A stretch of DNA of 64,000 nucleotides from Oscillatoriales cyanobacterium (GCA_011390955.1 JAABRM010000001.1:110694-174693); one strand, 5' to 3'. Shown: positions 25,640-61,701, counted from the first letter of the stretch. The notes: generated by a model from the letters alone, not told the origin. Program-made: numbers and translations.

Positions 25640-25850
25640 GCCCAAATAAACCTGGGAAAGGAGAGAGGGGAGAGAAGGGAGGAGAGAGAAGGGAGGGGAG
25701 AGGAAAGAGGAGAGAGGAGGGAGAAGGGAGAAAAGAGAATATCTTTACTCTTTCCTCTTTACTCTTTCCTCTTTACTCTTTCCTCTTTACTCTTTCCTCT
25801 TTGCTCTTTGCTCTTTGCTCTTTGCTCTTTCCTCTTTTTTCCTTGAGCAG
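25640..25850. repeat. Polypurine tract (GGAGAGA/GGGAGG)n followed by a polypyrimidine tandem repeat (CTCTTTACTCTTTC/CTCTTTG)n. A mirror/inverted-repeat, H-DNA- or hairpin-prone region.
   Basis: ggagagaggggagagaagggaggagagagaagggaggggagaggaaagagg... then ctttactctttcctctttactctttcctctttactc...ctctttgctctttgctctttgctc. A similar architecture occurs at 56640-56740. Confidence 0.8.
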
Positions 25851-51529: not shown

Positions 51530-53809
51530 TTACGGTGAAAATGGATTACCCGGATGCCCAACTCTAAATAGTACGGTAAAAATATTATCCTCGACCAACA
51601 GACTACGCCCAAAAGGGTCGTTACCATAGTCATATTCCTGTTTTTGCCAGTTGAAAGATAGAGTGGGACTGTTCGGTTTATTTTCCAGTTGCCACACTAA
51701 ACTAGCACCGTAGGGAGAACGACTTGATGTTTCGTCAATCGGTGCTACATAACCAGAAAATGTCAGGTTATTTAGAGGCCGAAAAGCGAGATTTATGAGC
51801 AGGCGATCTTCGTAGGAATTAGGCAGGATATCACCAAAATAGTTGCTTACACCCAGGGAGGCAATTCCCCAGTTTAATCCAGCACTTATGGCTACTTCAC
51901 TGGCCGGAGAAATACTGACTACATCACCAATTTTGGTTTCGCGATCGAGTGCATAGTTAAATCCCGTGCCTAGGGTTAAATTGGCATTGTCACCAAGGCG
52001 AATTGCTTTGGCGGCATTGCCCCAAATTTGGCTGTAGTAATCGCGATCGGGGTTGATGTAACCAATCGCTCCAGCCCCAAAATTCCACCCGTTGACTGTA
52101 TTTTTTATGTAATCAGTCCCTAGGTAAACTTTTAATTCATCAGAGGCAATCACTCCGGTATAATAGCGCAGAAGGTCTTGACTTCCTGTCCAGTTTCCGG
52201 TAAAACTTAGGTGAGGATAATAATCGCTTTTTTCTTGGTAAGTATCTTGGCGAATTCTATTCACATCTTGCTGTAAGAAGCTTAAGTAAATTTGAGCATA
52301 GAAATCTTCCAAGTTTTCCGTAGAATACAAGTCTTGGTTAACCGCAGACATTAACTGGACGTTGCTACCGCTGCCCCCTTCTCCCCCAGAACCAGTGATG
52401 GTCACTTGTGGCCCAGTGGCTTGGTAAAATATGCGGCCATCTTTAAAGGAGCGATCGATTACCGGCGAAAAACCGAACCAAATGCTATTATAATTCGCCC
52501 TAGGAACTTGATTTAAACTGGTGATATCCGGGGTTAAACTGTCGGCACGTCCCAAGCCCGCAGAATAAATCGTAAAACTACTGCTAGGCAACCGAATATT
52601 ATTAGCCGATAAAAATAAGTTGCGGTTGATATTTGTATTCACGGGATTTTCGCTTCCGGCTAAATTCGGCATCACATCCGGTAACAATTGCGCCGCCGTT
52701 TGTAAGGTGAGATTTAACCCGCGATTTTCATCATTTCCAAACACAGTAAAGCCGCGAATTGTTCGCCCGATCGCTGCTTCCGTATCGTTGGCTTTTACTA
52801 CTTGACGCACTCCAGAGAATGTAGCCGCAACGGTATAGTCATTTTCTTCTTCTCGCGCAATTTTAGTGGTTTGAGATTGGCTATTTCCCGGATAAGAACC
52901 GGAATTGGGAAAATACAAATCCAGACCAATGGGTTGTTCGGGGGTTCCCCCTTGGAAACCAGGGGCCTCCATAGCCGCCAAAGTTTCCGATCGCACAACT
53001 TCCCCCACCGGAGAGGTTTGAGTGACGCGGGTCGGGACGAAATATTCTGGATCGATACTGTTGCGATCGGTGACTAAACCGGGCATATATGTACATTGTC
53101 GATCCCTGGGAGTATCCGGTAACACACAAGCCCCAGTTAAAGTCATTTGCATTTCTAACCCGGTCATGGTTTGGGGTTCCGTGGTAGTGGTTGTCACCGT
53201 TCTATTTCGGGGTACAGTCCGCAGTTGAAGATAAGTGCCTTTTTGATCCACGGTGTAAATATTATCTTGAGTTAAACTTTCAACCACTTCATCATCTAGT
53301 TTGAGAATGCCATTGACAAACACATCGCTGTTGGTCGTATCCGCAAAAGTTTGAAAGGCACTAAATTGCCATTCCGTTAAATGGCTGATAGGAGTTTCGT
53401 TGAGAAATACCGTCGTGGTAAATGGGTGAATTTTTTCGTCTGGAGCCACTTGAGGAGTAATAATAGAATTTGGGTCAGAAGATGGGGCAAAAATTGGCGC
53501 AGTTTCCATTAATTCCGGTGCGGATATGGAATTATCCGGCGATATTTCTAAGTCTGAAGCCGAATTAGATTCGCTGGTTGTTTCTGAACTTGTTTCTGAT
53601 AAAGGAGTAACTTCTGCTGGCTCAGAAATCTGTTCTGTCCCAGAGTCTATTCCCTCGGAATCTTCTGAGATATCCGCAGAATTTTGGGCAACGGCTGAGG
53701 TGGAAATCGCCATACTCAGCAGGGTGAAACAGGCCACCAAGCTATGACGATATGCTGTTGAAAATGCTGTTGAGATAATCCGAGTCATTTTAGGGCGATT
53801 TTGGAACAT
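51530..53809 (-). CDS. Large secreted protein, probable outer-membrane beta-barrel (DUF3769/LptD-like?), with acidic Ser/Glu-rich N-terminal region
   Basis: Signal peptide (LVACFTLLSMAISTSAVAQ), then a low-complexity SE-rich segment, then ~550 aa of alternating hydrophobic beta-strand-like pattern rich in Gly/Asn/Tyr/Trp. Confidence 0.45.
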   Translation of the reverse strand: MFQNRPKMTRIISTAFSTAYRHSLVACFTLLSMAISTSAVAQNSADISEDSEGIDSGTEQISEPAEVTPLSETSSETTSESNSASDLEISPDNSISAPELMETAPIFAPSSDPNSIITPQVAPDEKIHPFTTTVFLNETPISHLTEWQFSAFQTFADTTNSDVFVNGILKLDDEVVESLTQDNIYTVDQKGTYLQLRTVPRNRTVTTTTTEPQTMTGLEMQMTLTGACVLPDTPRDRQCTYMPGLVTDRNSIDPEYFVPTRVTQTSPVGEVVRSETLAAMEAPGFQGGTPEQPIGLDLYFPNSGSYPGNSQSQTTKIAREEENDYTVAATFSGVRQVVKANDTEAAIGRTIRGFTVFGNDENRGLNLTLQTAAQLLPDVMPNLAGSENPVNTNINRNLFLSANNIRLPSSSFTIYSAGLGRADSLTPDITSLNQVPRANYNSIWFGFSPVIDRSFKDGRIFYQATGPQVTITGSGGEGGSGSNVQLMSAVNQDLYSTENLEDFYAQIYLSFLQQDVNRIRQDTYQEKSDYYPHLSFTGNWTGSQDLLRYYTGVIASDELKVYLGTDYIKNTVNGWNFGAGAIGYINPDRDYYSQIWGNAAKAIRLGDNANLTLGTGFNYALDRETKIGDVVSISPASEVAISAGLNWGIASLGVSNYFGDILPNSYEDRLLINLAFRPLNNLTFSGYVAPIDETSSRSPYGASLVWQLENKPNSPTLSFNWQKQEYDYGNDPFGRSLLVEDNIFTVLFRVGHPGNPFSP

Positions 53810-54235: not shown

Positions 54236-54751
54236 TTATTTACGATCAGTAGGATCAGTAGAGCCAGGACCAGTATAGTCAGGATCAGTAGAGCCAGGAC
54301 CAGTAGAGCCAGGACCAGTAGAGCCAGAAGCAGCAGGAACTTGATTCACGACATTGCCACTGCTAGTGCCGAGTTGAATGCTGTACCCATTGCTGATGGT
54401 GTTCGCTTGTGCCGTGCCAAGGGCGGCGTCTGCGGTGCCTGTCACTTTAAAAGTGGCGCTGCCAATGCCTTCTGAGGTCGTTGCACCCGCAGAACCGATC
54501 GCAAAGGCCGCGTTTTGTAACCCAGAGGTTCCGCTACTAAGGATATAGTTAAAAGCGTGTGCGATCGCAGAGTCTTTACCGACAGCAGCCGAGACCGCCA
54601 CACCTGTAACCTTATCGGCGCTAACAGTGAAAGCCGCAGAACCGGCAATTCCACCTTCACCCGCACGGGCGACATTAGCAAATCCCAAGGCATTCATAAT
54701 AACGAGACCGCTAACGACAGCAAAACGACGGTTCATAATTTTCTGGATCAT
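54236..54751 (-). CDS. Small secreted Gly/Ala/Ser-rich protein with C-terminal GSTGPGSTDP repeats
   Basis: Signal peptide (FAVVSGLVIMNALGFANVARA); C-terminus GSTGPGSTGPGSTDPDYTGPGSTDPTDRK. Confidence 0.5.
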   Translation of the reverse strand: MIQKIMNRRFAVVSGLVIMNALGFANVARAGEGGIAGSAAFTVSADKVTGVAVSAAVGKDSAIAHAFNYILSSGTSGLQNAAFAIGSAGATTSEGIGSATFKVTGTADAALGTAQANTISNGYSIQLGTSSGNVVNQVPAASGSTGPGSTGPGSTDPDYTGPGSTDPTDRK

Positions 54752-54769: not shown

Positions 54770-55262
54770 GTGTTTTTTGTGTTCTATTAATAAGACGTTT
54801 GAGGAAGCAATGTGTGAATTTTTTAGGTGAAAAAATTCAGTTTTTTAGAGCAGATTTGCTAATCCTCATTTGATTTTGTTGTGCTCTATTAATAAGACGC
54901 TTTAAGGCGCGGACTGTGAATTTTTTAGGTGAAAAAATTCAGATTTGTTTCTAGAGCCGGTTGCATCACCCTTGATTAACTTGTGCTCTATTAATAAGAC
55001 GCTTTAAGGCGCGGGTTGTGAATTTTTTAGAAAAATGTAGGGTGGGCAAGGATTTGCCCACCCTACGACTAATTAGCGATTTTCAAACTAATAAACCACA
55101 AATTTTCAGCCATAAACCCTACTACAGATGCTTTGTGGTCTATTCATTAGAAAACCGCTGCGATCGCACTGTAGGGTAGGCAAGGATTTGCTCACCCTAC
55201 TATTAATAAGACGCCGGAAACAGCGAGTTGTGAATTTTTTCGGCCAAAAAATTCCGAATTTT
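54770..55262. repeat. Four tandem copies of a ~65-75-bp unit (TGCTCTATTAATAAGACGCTTTAAGGCGCGG..TGTGAATTTTTTAGGTGAAAAAATTCAG) interspersed with GTAGGGTGGGCAAGGATTTGCCCACCCTAC hairpins
   Basis: Units begin near 54785, 54881, 54971 and 55198. Each contains the AT hairpin gaattttttaggtgaaaaaattc. Located between the sigma-factor 3' end and the start of the 54236-54751 gene. Confidence 0.8.
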
Positions 55263-55266
55263 CTAG

Positions 55267-56070
55267 CTACGCAGGAATGACAGTAGAGACAGGGCTTTGC
55301 CGTTGCTTGGATTTCCTGGTTTTCTCGGTTTCAGGGGCGACTCCTCCCCCGCGAGGGGGCAAGCTTCGGGATCCGTTGCGCGGCATCGCTTCTAAACCGA
55401 GTGTTTTGGGGGTGAGGACAGAGACTCGCGTCTTTGTCTGTCCAGGTCGATGGTTTGACTTCAGGTCTGTTTGCGGTGGAGGAGAAATACTGAGTTTTCC
55501 TGCCTCATATTCATGCCATTGTTGCTGCAAAATTCGCCGCGCTTGGGACATCCGCTTGCGAGCATTGTCATAAGAAATGCCCAGTTGTTCGGCAATTTCT
55601 TTGAGCGAATATTTTTTCTGGAGATAAAGGTGAAATGTTTCCCGCATTTTCGGCGGTAAGGTATCTATGGCATTGCCAAAAAATAACTCAAGATTTCGCA
55701 AACGTTCCGGGTCAGATATTTCTTCCTGAATAACCAAATCATTCTTTTCGGAGGCGATCGCCTCTACATCCATTATTTCCACTGGATTTCTGCGGCGTTT
55801 TCGCTGGAGATCCATGCAGAGGTTATAGGTCAGTCTAGTCAACCAGGCTTTAAAATTGGAAATCGGTCGATCGGTTGTTCTCAGTTTCTCTATGGCTTTT
55901 ACCATTGCCTCGCTGAGAGCATCTTCCGCATCAGCGGGATTACCTCCCATCCAATCCAGGCAGCAACCATAAAGATAGTTTTTATGCTCGATCCACTGCT
56001 GCCAAAAGATGACATTAATATCGGTAGTATTGGTATTTACGTCTCTGGTTATGTTCTGCCTAGCCATCAT
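55267..56070 (-). CDS. ECF-type RNA polymerase sigma-70 factor with low-complexity C-terminal extension
   Basis: Sigma-2: AMVKAIEKLRTTDRPISNFKAWLTRLTYNLCMDLQRKRRR; sigma-4 HTH: LPPKMRETFHLYLQKKYSLKEIAEQLGISYDNARKRMSQARRILQQ. Confidence 0.85.
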   Translation of the reverse strand: MMARQNITRDVNTNTTDINVIFWQQWIEHKNYLYGCCLDWMGGNPADAEDALSEAMVKAIEKLRTTDRPISNFKAWLTRLTYNLCMDLQRKRRRNPVEIMDVEAIASEKNDLVIQEEISDPERLRNLELFFGNAIDTLPPKMRETFHLYLQKKYSLKEIAEQLGISYDNARKRMSQARRILQQQWHEYEAGKLSISPPPQTDLKSNHRPGQTKTRVSVLTPKTLGLEAMPRNGSRSLPPRGGGVAPETEKTRKSKQRQSPVSTVIPA

Positions 56071-56833
56071 GTTTTAGCCTTAAATATTCTACAAAGATTC
56101 TACAAATTCATGGAGTGAGATGTAGATGCACGTTCAATTACTGGGGGTGACATTTCCCCAGGTTTATAGAGAACAAAAGGATTGACTAGGTAGATGCTTT
56201 AACTTGCGACCGCTTGAGCCAAGTCGAGGGAAAAATTTATCACGATTTCGCCAATTTTTCCGGCTGAATGAACAACATCAAATTCAGCCATTTGTTTTTT
56301 TGTTTGCCCTTTCTACTAGCTTATTCTATGGTTAGGGCAACTGTGTATCCGATTCGCGCAACTTTTTCGCCTGAGACGAGATTTTTTTTGCTTTTCTCGG
56401 AAATAAATCGGTTTGGAGCCTCTGAAAGCCAGAAACCGGGTTTCTTCTATCCCAGAAACCCGGTTTCTTGTTGGGGTAATTTACTACTCCAAATTACCTT
56501 CCCGCTAATATCAAAACTGAAACTTTAGCCAACAATGGCGAAAAAATGGCCTTTATACCGGCAATCTAATACTATTTACATACTATTTACAAAACTTCAT
56601 CTAACAGCCCCGAACATTTTTCGGTTGGGCAAAAAATGCCTAGAAGAGAGAAGAGAGAAGAGAGAAGAGAGAAAAGTTAGTTAAATGAAATATCACTATT
56701 CACTATTCACTCTTTCCTCTTTCCTATGCATCCTCTTTCCTCCCACAAGTGTGGAATGCAAGCCCACCCTACAATATAAATACTTATTGTTGCATACTTT
56801 TTTGTAAATGGTGTTGCTACATCAGGAGGTTTT

Positions 56834-58408
56834 CTAACACTTTAAATGCCTGCAAACTGTTAACACTGCCGGGATAAAACCAGTCAGTTGGTTGTGGTCT
56901 AAGTAGAGCCGTGATAATTTGGTCAGATTACCTAACTCTGCGGGGATAGAACCAGTCAGTTGATTGTTGTTCAGATAGAGACTCGACAATTTGGTCAGAT
57001 TACCTAACTCTGCGGGGATAGAACCAGTCAGTTGATTGTGGTACAGATACAGGTATGACAAGTTAGTCAGATGGCCTAATTCTGTGGGAATAGAACCAGT
57101 CAGTTGGTTATAGTTCAGGGAGAGGTATGACAAGTTAGTCAGATGGCCTAATTCTGTGGGAATAGAACCAGTCAGTTGGTTGTGGTTCAGGCCGAGACTC
57201 GATAATTTGGTCAGATGGCCTAATTCTGTGGGAATAGAACCAGTCAGTTGATTGTGGTTCAGGGAGAGGTATGACAAGTTAGTCAGATGGCCTAATTCTG
57301 TGGGAATAGAACCAGTCAGTTGATTGTGGTTCAGGGAGAGGTATGACAAGTTAGTCAGATGGCCTAATTCTGTGGGAATAGAACCAGTCAGTTGGTTATA
57401 GTTCAGGGAGAGGTATGACAAGTTAGTCAGATGGCCTAATTCTGTGGGAATAGAACCAGTCAGTTGATTGTGGTTCAGAGAGAGGTTCGTTACCCGATCG
57501 CCCTCTATCGTCACCCCATACCAGCCACTAACAGCAGAAGCATCAGGCAGTTCTTCGCTGTTAAAGTCCCAATCTTTCCAGCCTTTGTTATTATTCCAAC
57601 TCGGCCCATTTGTACTTTGATAAAGAGCCTTGAGAGCGGCATAATCATTCCCATTAAGAGGAATTAATGCTCCCTCACCCAATCCTCTGCCATAAGTTTT
57701 CACCTTTCCCTCCGACAAAACCGACAAGGAGGTCTCGATCTCCACAGTTTTCAGCGTTAACTCCCAGTCTTTCTCCCAAGTTGCCGCCCCCCCGAAAGAC
57801 TTAGAAGTGGCAATCTCAGGGTTTACTGTGGCTTGACTGCTGCAATTTACCGATAAACTCTTCTCTCCCATCATCGGCAGCCGCGTTACAATCGTGGAGC
57901 AAGAGTTTGTCGAGTTTCCACCGTTGCAGTAGGGGGCGTAACGATTGAGCGTTTTATTACTTAGTTGAGTGTTTCTCTGTAGATAAAGTTGGAAAGTTTC
58001 GCGCATTCTCGGTGGTAAGTTATCTATGGCATCGGCAAGAAATAACTCAAGTTCTCGCAAATTTTCCGGGTCAGGTGTTTCCTTCTGCGTAACCCCATCA
58101 TTTTTTGCGGAGGCGATCGCTTCTAAGTCCATAGATTGCACTGGATTTCTGCGGCGTTGGCGCCGGATATCCATGCAGAGGTTATAGGTCAGTCTAGTCA
58201 ACCATGCTTTAAAATTTGAAATCGGTCGATCGGTTGTTCTCAGTTTCTCTATGGCTTTTACCATTGCTTCGCTGAGAACATACTCCGCATCAGTGGGATT
58301 ACCTCCCATCCAATTCAGGCAACAACCATAAAGATAATTTCTATGCTTTGGCCATTGCTGCCAAAAAATTACATTGATATCGAGAATTCTGTTCTGCCTA
58401 GCCATCAT
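56834..58408 (-). CDS. Chimeric ORF: ECF sigma-2 region (paralog of 55267..56070) with sigma-4 replaced by an LRRNT-capped plant-type leucine-rich-repeat domain
   Basis: First ~170 aa are near-identical to the neighbouring sigma factor up to ...LPPRMRETFQLYLQ, then diverge. This is followed by ALKALYQSTNGPSWNNNKGWKDW...WYGVTIEG (LRR N-terminal cap) and ≥9 perfect 24-aa repeats LSLNHNQLTGSIPTELGHLTNLSY. Confidence 0.65.
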   Translation of the reverse strand: MMARQNRILDINVIFWQQWPKHRNYLYGCCLNWMGGNPTDAEYVLSEAMVKAIEKLRTTDRPISNFKAWLTRLTYNLCMDIRRQRRRNPVQSMDLEAIASAKNDGVTQKETPDPENLRELELFLADAIDNLPPRMRETFQLYLQRNTQLSNKTLNRYAPYCNGGNSTNSCSTIVTRLPMMGEKSLSVNCSSQATVNPEIATSKSFGGAATWEKDWELTLKTVEIETSLSVLSEGKVKTYGRGLGEGALIPLNGNDYAALKALYQSTNGPSWNNNKGWKDWDFNSEELPDASAVSGWYGVTIEGDRVTNLSLNHNQLTGSIPTELGHLTNLSYLSLNYNQLTGSIPTELGHLTNLSYLSLNHNQLTGSIPTELGHLTNLSYLSLNHNQLTGSIPTELGHLTKLSSLGLNHNQLTGSIPTELGHLTNLSYLSLNYNQLTGSIPTELGHLTNLSYLYLYHNQLTGSIPAELGNLTKLSSLYLNNNQLTGSIPAELGNLTKLSRLYLDHNQLTGFIPAVLTVCRHLKC

Positions 58409-59019
58409 GTTTCAGCCTTAAATATTCTACAAACTAACGAGAAAATGTAGACGCACGTTAGCAAATCGGCGGTTAGATCGCCGATGTTTCTAGACAACTT
58501 GAAAATTGACTAGGTAGATGCTTTTCTGATTCGCGGCCAAGGCCAGCGGAAAATTTGTCACGATTTCGCCAATTTTTCCGGCTGAATGAACAACATCAAA
58601 TTCAGCCGTCTGTTTTTTGTTTGCCCTTTCTACTAGCTTATTCTATGGTTAGGGCAACTGTGTATCCGATTCGCGCAACTTTTGCTCAAATTTTGGCCAA
58701 AGTGCAAAATTGTAGATCGATAGATCGGATCGACTCGAAGTACCCAACCCCTAAAAGTATGATTCTAGGCAGATTTATCAATGGTCGCGGCATATTCCCC
58801 GATCGCCGATCGCGGGTTTACCTGCCTTTTAATTATAGGTTGGTAATTTGTTACAAATAAGTTAAAAAAAACAGAACTTACGCATTAACCCTATCCGTAG
58901 GTATCCGTAGGGTGTTGTTCCGAGACGGTGACACACCAATACCCCATATATAGATTCGTTGCGTAAGTCCTAAAAAAGTAAAAATTAGAGGCGATCGCAG
59001 AGGAGGTGCAGGGGAAAAC

Positions 59020-59150
59020 AATTAACAATTGATAATTGACAATTGACAATTAAACACCACGATCGATTAACAATTGATAATTGATAATTGATAATTGATA
59101 ATTATCAATTATCAATTGTTAATTATCAATTATTCCCTCTGCGCCTGAAG
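59020..59150. repeat. Palindromic (AATTGAT)n / (ATCAATT)n heptamer array downstream of cydB
   Basis: aattgataattgacaattgacaatt...aattgataattgataattgataattgataattatcaattatcaattgttaattatcaatt. The same family occurs at 60255-60335, 38288-38343 and 6585-6655. Confidence 0.85.
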
Positions 59151-59181
59151 CTCCTCTGCACAAGACGCCACCTACAGCTAA

Positions 59182-60195
59182 TTAATCACCGTAATTATCT
59201 GTACTAACTTTACCCCGGAAAACAATATATTGATAGATATTGTAAAACAACATAATCGGGATTAAAAAGCCAATGAACACAATCATAAACACCAGGGAAC
59301 TGGTAGCAGCAGCGGCATCGTAGATCGTAATTTGGGTGGGAATAATATAGGGAAACACAATCAACGCCAACCCAGAAAACGTGAGTAAGAAAATGCCAAT
59401 CGTACAGATAAACGGGGTTTTCTCTTGTCGCTTGTTCAGGCTATTAATCAGTAGACCGATTAACAAAACGCCTAACAAAGGAATCAAGGCGAAAATATAC
59501 ACTTGGGGGGGATTAAAGAGGCGATCGCGAATTTGGGCAAAAAAGAGCGGAGTGGTAATCGTAATTAATCCCGCGCCCAATAACGTCGTCCAAGCGGCGA
59601 TTTTGGCAGTGCGGAAGTGAGTATTCTGCAAATCCCCGGAAGTTTTCAGAATCAGATAAGTAGAACCGATTAAAACGTAACCTTGAATTAACGTCAAAGC
59701 CACCAACAAAGAAGGCAAACTTAGCCAGTCCCAAGTATTGCCCACAAAATGTCCTGTTTCATCGACCGTAATACCTGCCAAAACACCGCCCAGGGCAAAT
59801 CCTTGACCGAGGGCAGCCAAAAAACTACCCGCACCAAATGCGAAATTCCACAACAATTTTCGGTTAGAATGTTCGCGAAATTCAAAGGCGACTGCCCGAA
59901 AAATAAAGCCGAAAATCATCACAAAAATCGGGATATATAGGGCATTAAGAATCGTGCTATACGCCAAAGGAAATGCCCCAAAAAGAGCACCGCCCATCAG
60001 CACTAACCAGGTTTCATTGGCATCCCAAACATTACTTAAGCTAGTCATCAAAATGCCCCGACGTTCCTCATTAGAAGCGGTGAGAGATAAGATTCCCACT
60101 CCTAAATCAAAGCCATCCAGCATGACATAAAGGAAAAGGAACAAAGCTAGAATGAAAAACCAGACTTGTGGCAGAAATTGATCCAAGGTTTCCAT
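59182..60195 (-). CDS. cydB: Cytochrome bd ubiquinol oxidase subunit II
   Basis: METLDQFLPQVWFFILALFLFLYVMLDGFDLGVGIL, the canonical CydB N-terminus, plus 8 TM helices. Confidence 0.9.
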   Translation of the reverse strand: METLDQFLPQVWFFILALFLFLYVMLDGFDLGVGILSLTASNEERRGILMTSLSNVWDANETWLVLMGGALFGAFPLAYSTILNALYIPIFVMIFGFIFRAVAFEFREHSNRKLLWNFAFGAGSFLAALGQGFALGGVLAGITVDETGHFVGNTWDWLSLPSLLVALTLIQGYVLIGSTYLILKTSGDLQNTHFRTAKIAAWTTLLGAGLITITTPLFFAQIRDRLFNPPQVYIFALIPLLGVLLIGLLINSLNKRQEKTPFICTIGIFLLTFSGLALIVFPYIIPTQITIYDAAAATSSLVFMIVFIGFLIPIMLFYNIYQYIVFRGKVSTDNYGD

Positions 60196-60309
60196 AACAA
60201 TTTGTGAAAGATAATAGGGAAAGGGAAGAAAGGGTGTAGGGTGTAGGGGAAGAGAGAATAATTGATAATTGATAATTGATAATTAAACATAATTATCAAT
60301 TGTTAATTA

Positions 60310-61701
60310 TCAATTGTTAATTGTTTCCAATTCTTCTCCGGGAACTGGGAGTTCTAAATTTGGGCCTTTGCGAATAATTCGGCTACCAAAAAATAGGGCA
60401 CAAATAAACAAAATAGAATAGACCACCGCAAAGAGAGTTAAAGAGGTTAAAACATTGCTTGGGGGCAAATTGCTGGCCGCATCTACGGTACGGATTTGCT
60501 CGTAAAGTGTCCAAGGTTGGCGTCCCACACAGCGAACAATCCAGCCAGATTCTACGGCAATATATCCTAAAGGTGCGGCAAAAATCCAGGTCGCCATTAA
60601 CCAACTTTGTTGACCAATTTTATCTTCAGCTAATTGACCTCGGATCCACTGCACTACAGTCCAAAACATTAAACCAGCTAAGAAGAAACCGATCGCCACC
60701 ATAATCCGAAAAGAATAATAGATTAATCCCACCATGTGCGGGCGATCTTCGGGTCGCCATTCTTTCAAACCCCGTACAGGTTCCGAAAGTTTTGGTTTCA
60801 GTTCCAGGATATATCCCAAAGCGTTAGGAATGGCGATTTCCCAATCATTTTTTTCAGCGGTTTCATTGGGGAGAGAAACCATACTCCAAGGGGCAGAATT
60901 GCCAGCGGGAATTGTTTCCCATTGGGCTTCCATTGCGGCGAGTTTTGCCGGTTGGTGTTGATAGACTTGTTCGGCACTTAAATGGCCAATATAAATTTGC
61001 AATGGGGCAACAGCGATCGCGGCGGCTAAAACAATTTTGAAAGACTTACTGAAAAACCCTTGATGGCGACCTTTGAGAATATACCAAGCGCTAATTCCGC
61101 CAATCACAAATAACGAAGTCTCCAAAGTGGCAAAAAACATATGGAGGACGCTATTCAGCATAAAAGGATTAAAAATTGCTTGAAAATAATCGCTGACCAC
61201 AAATTTGCCATTCACCATTTCCCCACCAGCGGGAGTTTGTAGCCAAGAATTCGCCGCAATAATCCAAAATGTTGAGAGGTTAGCGCCAAAAGCTACCATA
61301 ATTGTAGCGAAATAATGAATCGCTGGATTGACTTTTTCCCAGCCAAATAGCATAATGCCTAGAAAGCCCGCTTCTAGCATAAATGCCATAGAAGCTTCAA
61401 AGCCTAAAACACTGCCAAAAAAGTCCCCAACTGCTTCAGAAAATGGCGCCCAATTCGTGCCAAATTGAAATTCCATCGGGACTCCAGAAGCTACCCCAAT
61501 GCCAAAGTTGAGCACATATAGTTTTGCCCAAAAACGGGCATGATGATAGTAGTCAGGATTCCGAGTTTTTAACCAGAGTCCTTCGACAATTACCAAATAA
61601 ATGGCCATACCTGTAGTCAATACAGGCCATAGCATATGAAAGATAGCCGTGAGTGCAAATTGCATCCGCGAAAGCACTACGGTGTCTGAGAGAAAGTCCA
61701 T
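60310..61701 (-). CDS. cydA: Cytochrome bd ubiquinol oxidase subunit I
   Basis: MDFLSDTVVLSRMQFALTAIFHMLWPVLTTGMAIYL with heme-ligand context and Q-loop. Immediately upstream of cydB on the same strand. Confidence 0.9.
   Translation of the reverse strand: MDFLSDTVVLSRMQFALTAIFHMLWPVLTTGMAIYLVIVEGLWLKTRNPDYYHHARFWAKLYVLNFGIGVASGVPMEFQFGTNWAPFSEAVGDFFGSVLGFEASMAFMLEAGFLGIMLFGWEKVNPAIHYFATIMVAFGANLSTFWIIAANSWLQTPAGGEMVNGKFVVSDYFQAIFNPFMLNSVLHMFFATLETSLFVIGGISAWYILKGRHQGFFSKSFKIVLAAAIAVAPLQIYIGHLSAEQVYQHQPAKLAAMEAQWETIPAGNSAPWSMVSLPNETAEKNDWEIAIPNALGYILELKPKLSEPVRGLKEWRPEDRPHMVGLIYYSFRIMVAIGFFLAGLMFWTVVQWIRGQLAEDKIGQQSWLMATWIFAAPLGYIAVESGWIVRCVGRQPWTLYEQIRTVDAASNLPPSNVLTSLTLFAVVYSILFICALFFGSRIIRKGPNLELPVPGEELETINN

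Follow-up and report, generated by a model that had tools for sequence, protein, structure and literature searches.

The locus described here lies in a 64,000-nt stretch of DNA from an Oscillatoriales cyanobacterium (GCA_011390955.1 JAABRM010000001.1:110694-174693); this whole stretch is called the window below, and all positions given without a contig name refer to it. On the minus strand, the locus contains a complete gene for an extracytoplasmic function (ECF) sigma factor, called copy 1, and upstream of it a partial second copy of the same locus, called copy 2. Copy 2 opens a 524-codon open reading frame (ORF) at positions 56834-58408, in which Sigma70_r2 is combined with the leucine-rich repeat (LRR) domains LRR_1, LRR_4, LRR_8 and LRR_14. 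The parts of the two copies and of this chimeric ORF, in the direction of transcription, are as follows.

58409-58683, minus strand: copy 2 of the sigma upstream region, with the GGCTGAAT...ATTCAGCC hairpin and a block of 65-71 nt identical to copy 1
57972-58408, minus strand: sigma-derived part of the chimeric ORF, amino acids 1 to about 145 (sigma-2, linker and first sigma-4 helix; the helix-turn-helix (HTH) is absent)
57973-57988, minus strand: junction at LYL (amino acids 141-143), common to sigma F[H/Q]LYLQK and DUF4347 CLYLGNTQLS; microhomology
57692-57988, minus strand: C-terminal remnant of DUF4347, about 100 residues (positions about 66-160 of 164), identified by HMMER, the Pfam domains of the matches, tblastn and BLASTP
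57840-57935, minus strand: stretch read out of the ancestral frame, PLLQRWKLDKLLLHDCNAAADDGREEFIGKLQ in the ancestral frame (tblastn to DUF4347 proteins)
57494-57691, minus strand: linker and LRRNT-like cap (DYAALKALYQSTNGPSW...WYGVTIEGDRV), 48.9% identical to P0126 and 62% to P0028
56846-57493, minus strand: nine tandem 72-nt (24-residue) LRR units of the plant-specific type (repeat family D1, Pfam)
56813-56845, minus strand: 3′ junction with the last codons LKC and the TAG stop (56836-56834), recognized by homology to intergenic DNA of a related contig
56071-56366, minus strand: copy 1 of the sigma upstream region (repeat families, breakpoints)
55267-56070, minus strand: copy 1, complete ECF sigma of 267 amino acids, with sigma-2, sigma-4 and a low-complexity tail of about 80 residues, syntenic with the sigma of relatives

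The direct repeats at 55613-56366 and 57972-58683 are 81.6% identical over 757 alignment columns (BLASTN, E = 0), and a second count gave 606 identical columns out of 754, which corresponds to about 80–82% overall. An earlier note on this DNA, made from the sequence alone, had reported a sigma segment of about 0.8 kb in two copies, and these repeats bear it out; the inverted repeat CCGGCTGAATGAACAACATCAAATTCAGCC that it mentioned lies within repeat family D5 and is indeed found in both copies. The repeat families D2 and D5-D8 span the same stretches, and the breakpoints of the duplication are sharp. Each repeat comprises about 275–295 nt of upstream DNA together with the sigma-2 (5′) half of the ECF sigma gene; on the copy-2 side the DNA repeat ends at 57972 (BLASTN). 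Two plus-strand ORFs, 56268-56528 and 58555-58860, exist as described but are spurious, because they are common to both copies only in the duplicated block and diverge outside it.

A recent duplication, which the note implied, does not fit the divergence of the copies. They are old, with a synonymous divergence (dS) of about 0.30 and an omega (dN/dS) of 0.44. Compared with the sigma gene of the related contig L001, dS is 0.06 for copy 1 and 0.37 for copy 2. These dN/dS values are unfit for dating the fusion, because the sigma part has been touched by gene conversion and there is no close relative of the LRR part.

The differences between the copies are clustered. Their longest identical runs are 65, 50, 50 and 36 nt, compared with a mean of 25 in shuffled sequences, and the corresponding probabilities are below 1e-4 for the longest run and 0.0013 for the second. 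The block of 65–71 nt that is identical in copy 1 and copy 2 has two substitutions in L020, a 1387-nt Logan contig (SRR14234120) described below; the identity of the block in the two copies can thus be read as gene conversion and not as constraint. The block was also considered as a conserved regulatory element or RNA, and this was rejected: Rfam gave nothing above threshold, only miRNA-like noise on palindromes. The block was not found upstream of more distant sigma homologues. As for the hairpin, which is followed by a T-run, its role as a plus-strand terminator was rejected as well, given that the stem is uncompensated in L001 and no plus-strand gene ends there. A scan for sigma-70-like promoters found 8 sites versus 8.1 in shuffles, and terminator-like sites numbered 5 versus 4.6. 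Visual inspection of copy 2 suggested an ECF-type AAC-N17-CGT motif, which neither copy 1 nor L001 retains. The hexamer TAGAAT of the upstream block reads TCGAAT in L020.

Copy 1 is a complete ECF sigma, as had been claimed: it contains Sigma70_r2 and Sigma70_r4_2/r4 (PF04542, PF08281 and PF04545), and its TIGR02937 score is 88.5 bits. The Pfam domain content of the 524-residue product confirms that the in-frame ORF leading from sigma-2 to LRRs is real. Its sigma-2 domain is found at amino acids 22–87 (PF04542, E = 3.2e-8), and TIGR02937 scores 43.3 bits against a cutoff of 42.9, with amino acids 22–148 aligned to positions 10–135 of the 165 in the model. In the Pfam search of the chimeric ORF there is no match to PF08281 or PF04545, that is, no sigma-4 HTH. 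Copy 1 and the chimeric ORF are 73% identical over the first ~150 residues (BLASTP), and the homology ends at about residues 145–150. The frame does not leave the sigma sequence right at the start of region 4, as the note had it: the exit is about 20 residues further, the first sigma-4 helix LPPRMRETFQLYLQR is retained, and only the HTH is lost. Among the ORFs of the 51.5–62 kb interval, no stand-alone sigma-4 ORF was seen.

By homology, the "linker" that follows in the ORF is the C-terminal portion (~100 residues) of a DUF4347 domain whose first ~65 residues are missing. An exhaustive HMMER search with amino acids 146–272 of the ORF aligned P0131 at positions 70–187 and P0133 at 77–194; P0138 and P0140 aligned similarly. 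All four proteins start with a complete DUF4347 and continue with an LRRNT-type cap; P0131 and P0138 then have LRRs (Pfam). The tblastn matches of P0131, P0133 and P0140 all begin at 57988, at the LYL. BLASTP with P0026, in which the C-terminus of DUF4347 also precedes LRRs, gave 48% identity from amino acid 194 of the ORF (E = 1e-53). The direct Pfam match of the ORF to DUF4347 (PF14252) is weak, 15.1 bits against a cutoff of 24.6 (E = 0.021, profile positions 117–161). The ORF does not contain the full domain, and the homology is real but partial and frameshifted. In the shifted frame, positions 57935-57840 encode a sequence 47–61% identical to four DUF4347 proteins, with E values of about 1e-11 in a local comparison and 2.5e-7 when the whole window is searched. 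Since this match lies in a frame other than that of the ORF, two compensating indels must have occurred, the first at a run of five C; about 32 codons (amino acids ~160–190 of the ORF) are read out of the ancestral frame. In the papers found that mention DUF4347, it comes up only in passing.

The frameshifted stretch includes the in-frame ATG ATG at amino acids 179–180, which could suggest promoter capture: the duplicated upstream region, which has been kept, would serve to express only the LRR fragment, with translation starting internally, e.g., at MMGEK (amino acids 179–183), and the sigma fragment would be irrelevant. We consider this very unlikely. These ATGs are within the out-of-ancestral-frame stretch and hence are not a native start, and there is no stop between the sigma start and them. 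Moreover, the donor family starts with DUF4347 and has no N-terminal signal peptide, the C-terminal remainder of the donor is missing here, and the fragment would have no evident export route.

The cap segment aligns with the cap region of its homologues, several of which have PF08263; in the ORF itself, LRRNT_2 (PF08263) is not significant. The LRR units are of the type LxxLxLxxNxLTGxIPxxLGxLxx, and LRR_1, LRR_4 and LRR_8 match them with E from 1e-28 to 1e-33. The note had counted at least nine identical 24-residue LRRs with no transmembrane segment. The number of nine and the plant type stand, as does the lack of a transmembrane segment in the chimeric ORF (the highest 19-residue Kyte-Doolittle mean is 0.88). 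The units are near-identical and not identical, with only units 2 and 6 matching at 72 of 72 nt; the array shows recent internal duplication. The term "LRR ectodomain" is not supported for a product that has neither a signal peptide nor a transmembrane segment and whose N-terminus is a cytoplasmic sigma-2 domain.

The similarity to LRRs fades at about 56870-56846. The TAG stop lies inside a block (56839-56813) that is 96% identical to intergenic DNA of L001 (9452-9478). With a sigma fragment joined to an internal DUF4347-LRR fragment and a stop taken from the intergenic flank, both partner genes are truncated. The window contains no further DUF4347 or He_PIG-like piece, and a close DUF4347-LRR donor was not found in the searches, the best match to the LRR cap being 62% identical.

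The protein search space comprised 5.8 billion proteins, and the following statements cover the matches listed from it. Sigma70_r2 and LRR are combined only in P0001, which is the chimeric ORF itself, located on a single NCBI contig of 302,693 bp. The next sigma matches to the ORF are copy 1 (74%) and the copy-1 orthologues (72%), and the others are at about 55% or lower. In contigs of species-representative genomes (14 loci) and JGI metagenome contigs (2 loci), all matches are confined to query residues up to 146. The sigma2–LRR architecture is a singleton in both the protein and the contig searches. The best sigma matches outside the source contig (72% identity) belong to the copy-1 type; a full-length sigma of the copy-2 type and a second sigma-2–LRR protein were looked for in these searches and not found.

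To compare the locus with its close relatives, its flanks have to be considered. They are listed below.

60310-61701, minus strand: cydA, ORF upstream of the locus
59182-60195, minus strand: cydB, ORF upstream of the locus
58684-59170, minus strand: "A flank", which separates cydB from copy 2; unique DNA rich in repeats, with no homology to the copy-1 flank
56568-56812, no strand assigned: 245-nt filler absent from L001, with an imperfect palindrome and a (CTCTT)n tract
56367-56567, minus strand: "F flank", the upstream flank of copy 1, common to L001 and not to copy 2

The JGI metagenome contigs L001 and L002 are 94% identical to the window in cydAB, and the products of cydA and cydB are 97% identical to those of the Cyt_bd_oxida_I/II genes of L001. 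Both contigs have cydA, cydB and one sigma gene with the F flank of copy 1, and no LRR; in place of window positions 59170-56840 they contain an unrelated filler of 430 nt. Another contig, L019 (JGI 3300035593), is 99.5% identical to the copy-1 region and has a patch of four copy-2-type sites at 55809-55800. The contig L020 encodes a single full-length sigma (P0122, 259 amino acids) and is a mosaic of both copies. Its first 107 nt are identical (107/107) to the copy-2 flank (58790-58684), and its upstream region and the first ~8 codons are of the copy-2 type, including a 21-nt deletion. The remainder is of the copy-1 type, with 97% identity in the shared coding part and 95% downstream. Homologous recombination between the two repeats, in an ancestor arranged like the window, would be expected to give such a structure. 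As a separate observation, the sigma gene of L020 no longer has its first ATG (395-400, AAAAATAATGG versus AAACATGATGG), and the start would shift to the second Met.

L001 and L020 keep different, complementary parts of the window arrangement. On this basis, part of which is a short, automatically assembled contig (L020), two losses of an ancestral tandem state are probable.

The mosaic relatives also bear on whether the chimeric ORF could be an artefact of sequencing or assembly, i.e., a chimeric contig or indel errors that created a long ORF. A single public record has the ORF, exact-sequence look-ups of copy 1 and of the chimeric ORF returned no recorded gene, and the first frameshift is at a run of five C. 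However, the copies are only ~80–86% identical, so that they are not collapsed reads, and L020 (flank and upstream region) and L019 (conversion patch) provide independent occurrences of copy-2-type sequence. Correction of the C-run would break the ORF, not create it, and the second indel is not in a homopolymer. An artefact is thus very unlikely.

We interpret the 524-codon ORF as a chimeric gene remnant in a recombination-prone interval, dispensable rather than an evolved regulator, with a probability slightly below 0.6. Of the two readings offered in the earlier note, a regulatory decoy or a recombination-generated pseudo-fusion, the second is favoured here: the ORF consists of gene fragments, reads ~32 codons out of frame, borrows its stop, is a singleton and is absent from close relatives. 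Its first piece is a partial tandem duplicate of the sigma locus, old and diverged, with ~275 nt of upstream DNA and codons 1 to ~145. The second is an internal fragment of a gene for a giant DUF4347-LRR protein, presumably joined to the first at LYL by illegitimate recombination, and the third a stop codon from the adjacent intergenic DNA. All this would have taken place in an unstable interval between cydB and the ECF sigma gene of a filamentous cyanobacterium. Judging by the relatives, the two sigma repeats may still exchange sequence by gene conversion and can recombine, which would remove the chimera and restore a single sigma.

With an intact upstream region and start codon, the chimeric ORF probably still gives a transcript, driven by the duplicated upstream region, and translation may follow. 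If made, the cytoplasmic sigma-2–LRR protein is predicted to be able to bind core RNA polymerase (RNAP) and not the -35 element. This prediction is based on the established functions of the sigma domains.

Several facts speak against a dispensable remnant. The frame has stayed open over 524 codons despite two mutually compensating indels. In comparison with copy 1, no additional decay is seen in the sigma fragment: of the family columns that are at least 90% conserved, copy 2 deviates at 2 and copy 1 at 4, and with 5 derived states versus 10 the fragment is no more derived. Omega between the copies is 0.44 and not 1. The upstream region, the start-codon context and the first codons of the chimeric ORF are well preserved, and every LRR consensus position is intact. 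If the chimera predates the split from L001 (dS 0.06–0.09), a neutral ORF of 1.6 kb should presumably have gained stops. The good state of the sigma fragment can be explained by conversion from the selected copy 1; however, such conversion is unable to account for the good state of the LRR part.

These features would be in agreement with a young functional chimeric gene, which, expressed from its copy of the sigma upstream region, might compete with the full-length sigma or be a decoy for it. It might also tether an LRR protein-binding surface to RNAP or be the sigma-2 half of a split sigma, and the DUF4347 remnant would serve only as a tolerant linker. Such a gene would have kept its frame, its upstream region with the start, and sigma-2 residues at the family-conserved columns; pN/pS among the LRR units is about 0.4, and the tandem state probably predates the strain splits. 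There is also a precedent for a split ECF sigma: as described in PMC7826278, SigO-RsoA of Bacillus subtilis is a two-subunit sigma, which demonstrates that a polypeptide with sigma-2 and without sigma-4, as in the chimera, occurs in nature. SigO-RsoA is conserved and has a dedicated partner with the other domain, whereas for the chimera no partner was identified among the ORFs of the 51.5–62 kb interval. Functionality is further called into question by the singleton status of the architecture and its absence from L001 and L020, by the cuts at arbitrary internal points of both parents and the flank-supplied stop, and by the fact that conservation of the sigma part is attributable to gene conversion. 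Overall, we regard a functional gene as possible, if rather doubtful. It seems unlikely to us that the ORF is a newly born expressed regulator whose frame was restored by a selected compensating indel and whose sigma-2 module, co-expressed with the full-length gene from a duplicate of its upstream region, serves as a dominant-negative brake on the full-length ECF sigma or as a recruiter of an LRR-bound partner.

The interpretation of the ORF as a chimeric remnant can be compared with known systems. Among the cyanobacterial ECF (group IV) sigmas (P0003, P0011, P0012, P0017, P0025 and others), copy 1 is a full member. The chimera resembles them over sigma-2, the linker, the first sigma-4 helix and the upstream region; unlike them, it has no sigma-4 HTH and therefore cannot alone be a promoter-specificity factor. 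Sigmas of the ECF41/42/56 types have C-terminal extensions, e.g., SnoaL_2 or TPR (PMC7730460, PMC8999054), and likewise combine a sigma module and a non-sigma domain in one polypeptide. They are conserved families in which the sigma-2–sigma-4 core is intact and the extension follows sigma-4, while the added part of the chimera replaces the HTH and is a unique gene fragment. With its truncated sigma-4, the chimera is not an extended ECF sigma in the sense of an intact core with a conserved extension domain, and the tails of the copy-1 family have no Pfam domain.

In the giant DUF4347-LRR(-He_PIG/cadherin) proteins P0131, P0138 and P0126, the C-terminus of DUF4347, the cap and the LRR array align with amino acids 141–521 of the ORF at 40–60% identity. 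The chimera differs from them in lacking the first ~65 residues of DUF4347 and everything past the first LRR array, and in its ~32 out-of-frame codons. Chimeric pseudogenes or gene remnants formed by partial tandem duplication and illegitimate recombination are a further point of comparison. The chimera shares with them truncated parents, microhomology at the junction, a borrowed stop, lineage-specific presence and loss by repeat recombination, and it differs from them in its open 524-codon frame and intact promoter region, which make expression plausible.

The feature is real and, for all its unique architecture, of an ordinary kind of origin. The locus is a well-resolved illustration of the ways in which chimeric ORFs may arise and disappear in large cyanobacterial genomes, namely through partial tandem duplication, illegitimate joining and recombination between repeats. 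It also calls for caution in annotation: the ORF would be labelled a "sigma-70 family/LRR protein", though both its halves are gene fragments. Should the product prove to be made and to bind the RNAP core, it would count as a sigma-2-only competitor of natural origin, and the ORF as a gene caught soon after its birth.

Downstream of copy 1 there are two further genes.

54236-54751, minus strand: protein of 171 amino acids with a hydrophobic N-terminal stretch
51530-53809, minus strand: protein of 759 amino acids with a hydrophobic N-terminal stretch

The gene order sigma, 171-aa gene, 759-aa gene recurs in a Microcoleaceae metagenome-assembled genome and in Okeania (L003, 10001-11810; L004, 2597-7644). 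By gene order, copy 1 is the syntenic orthologue of the sigma of these relatives. No anti-sigma gene is evident adjoining copy 1, and the 171-aa and 759-aa genes are likely to be its partners or targets. The copy-1 sigma family belongs to filamentous cyanobacteria: Microcoleus, Oscillatoriaceae, Nostoc, Moorea, Okeania and Trichodesmium. The C-terminal tails in the family are 80–200 residues long, of low complexity, and visibly different among P0007, P0011, P0012, P0018, P0023 and P0025; the tail of copy 1 is encoded at 55267-55500. In copy 1 and its relatives, no Pfam domain is recorded beyond the sigma domains.

The contig L001 is without window positions ~54714-51813, and this deletion of its own, 2.9 kb in length, joins the beginning of the 171-aa gene to the last part of the 759-aa gene. 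The resulting ORF (L001:11028-11384, 118 amino acids, "DUF8396") begins at the start of the 171-aa gene and from amino acid 13 matches amino acids 667–749 of the 759-aa protein. In this neighbourhood, a deletion thus seems to have produced another chimeric ORF independently of the first.

Some repeats of the interval can also be noted. In the filler at 56568-56812, the palindrome is ~110 nt long, and sub-threshold miRNA-like Rfam matches are located at 56628-56741; this filler resembles a 95-nt stretch at 25698-25792 with 74% identity. Arrays of heptamers of the AATTGAT/AATTATC type at 59016-59146 and 60245-60332 form long palindromes; they sit on both sides of cydB as inverted repeats, with arms of 37–49 nt that are 82–95% complementary. 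On the 3′ side of copy 1, a 72-nt unit is present in four copies at 54773-55260, with spacings of 102, 102 and 212 nt. The palindromes TGAATTTTTTAGGTGAAAAAATTCA and GTAGGGTGGGCAAGGATTTGCCCACCCTAC are found within and between these units, and GTAGGGTGGGCAAGGATTTGCCCACCCTAC scores as terminator-like. The short contigs L019 and L020 both end in this repeat region.

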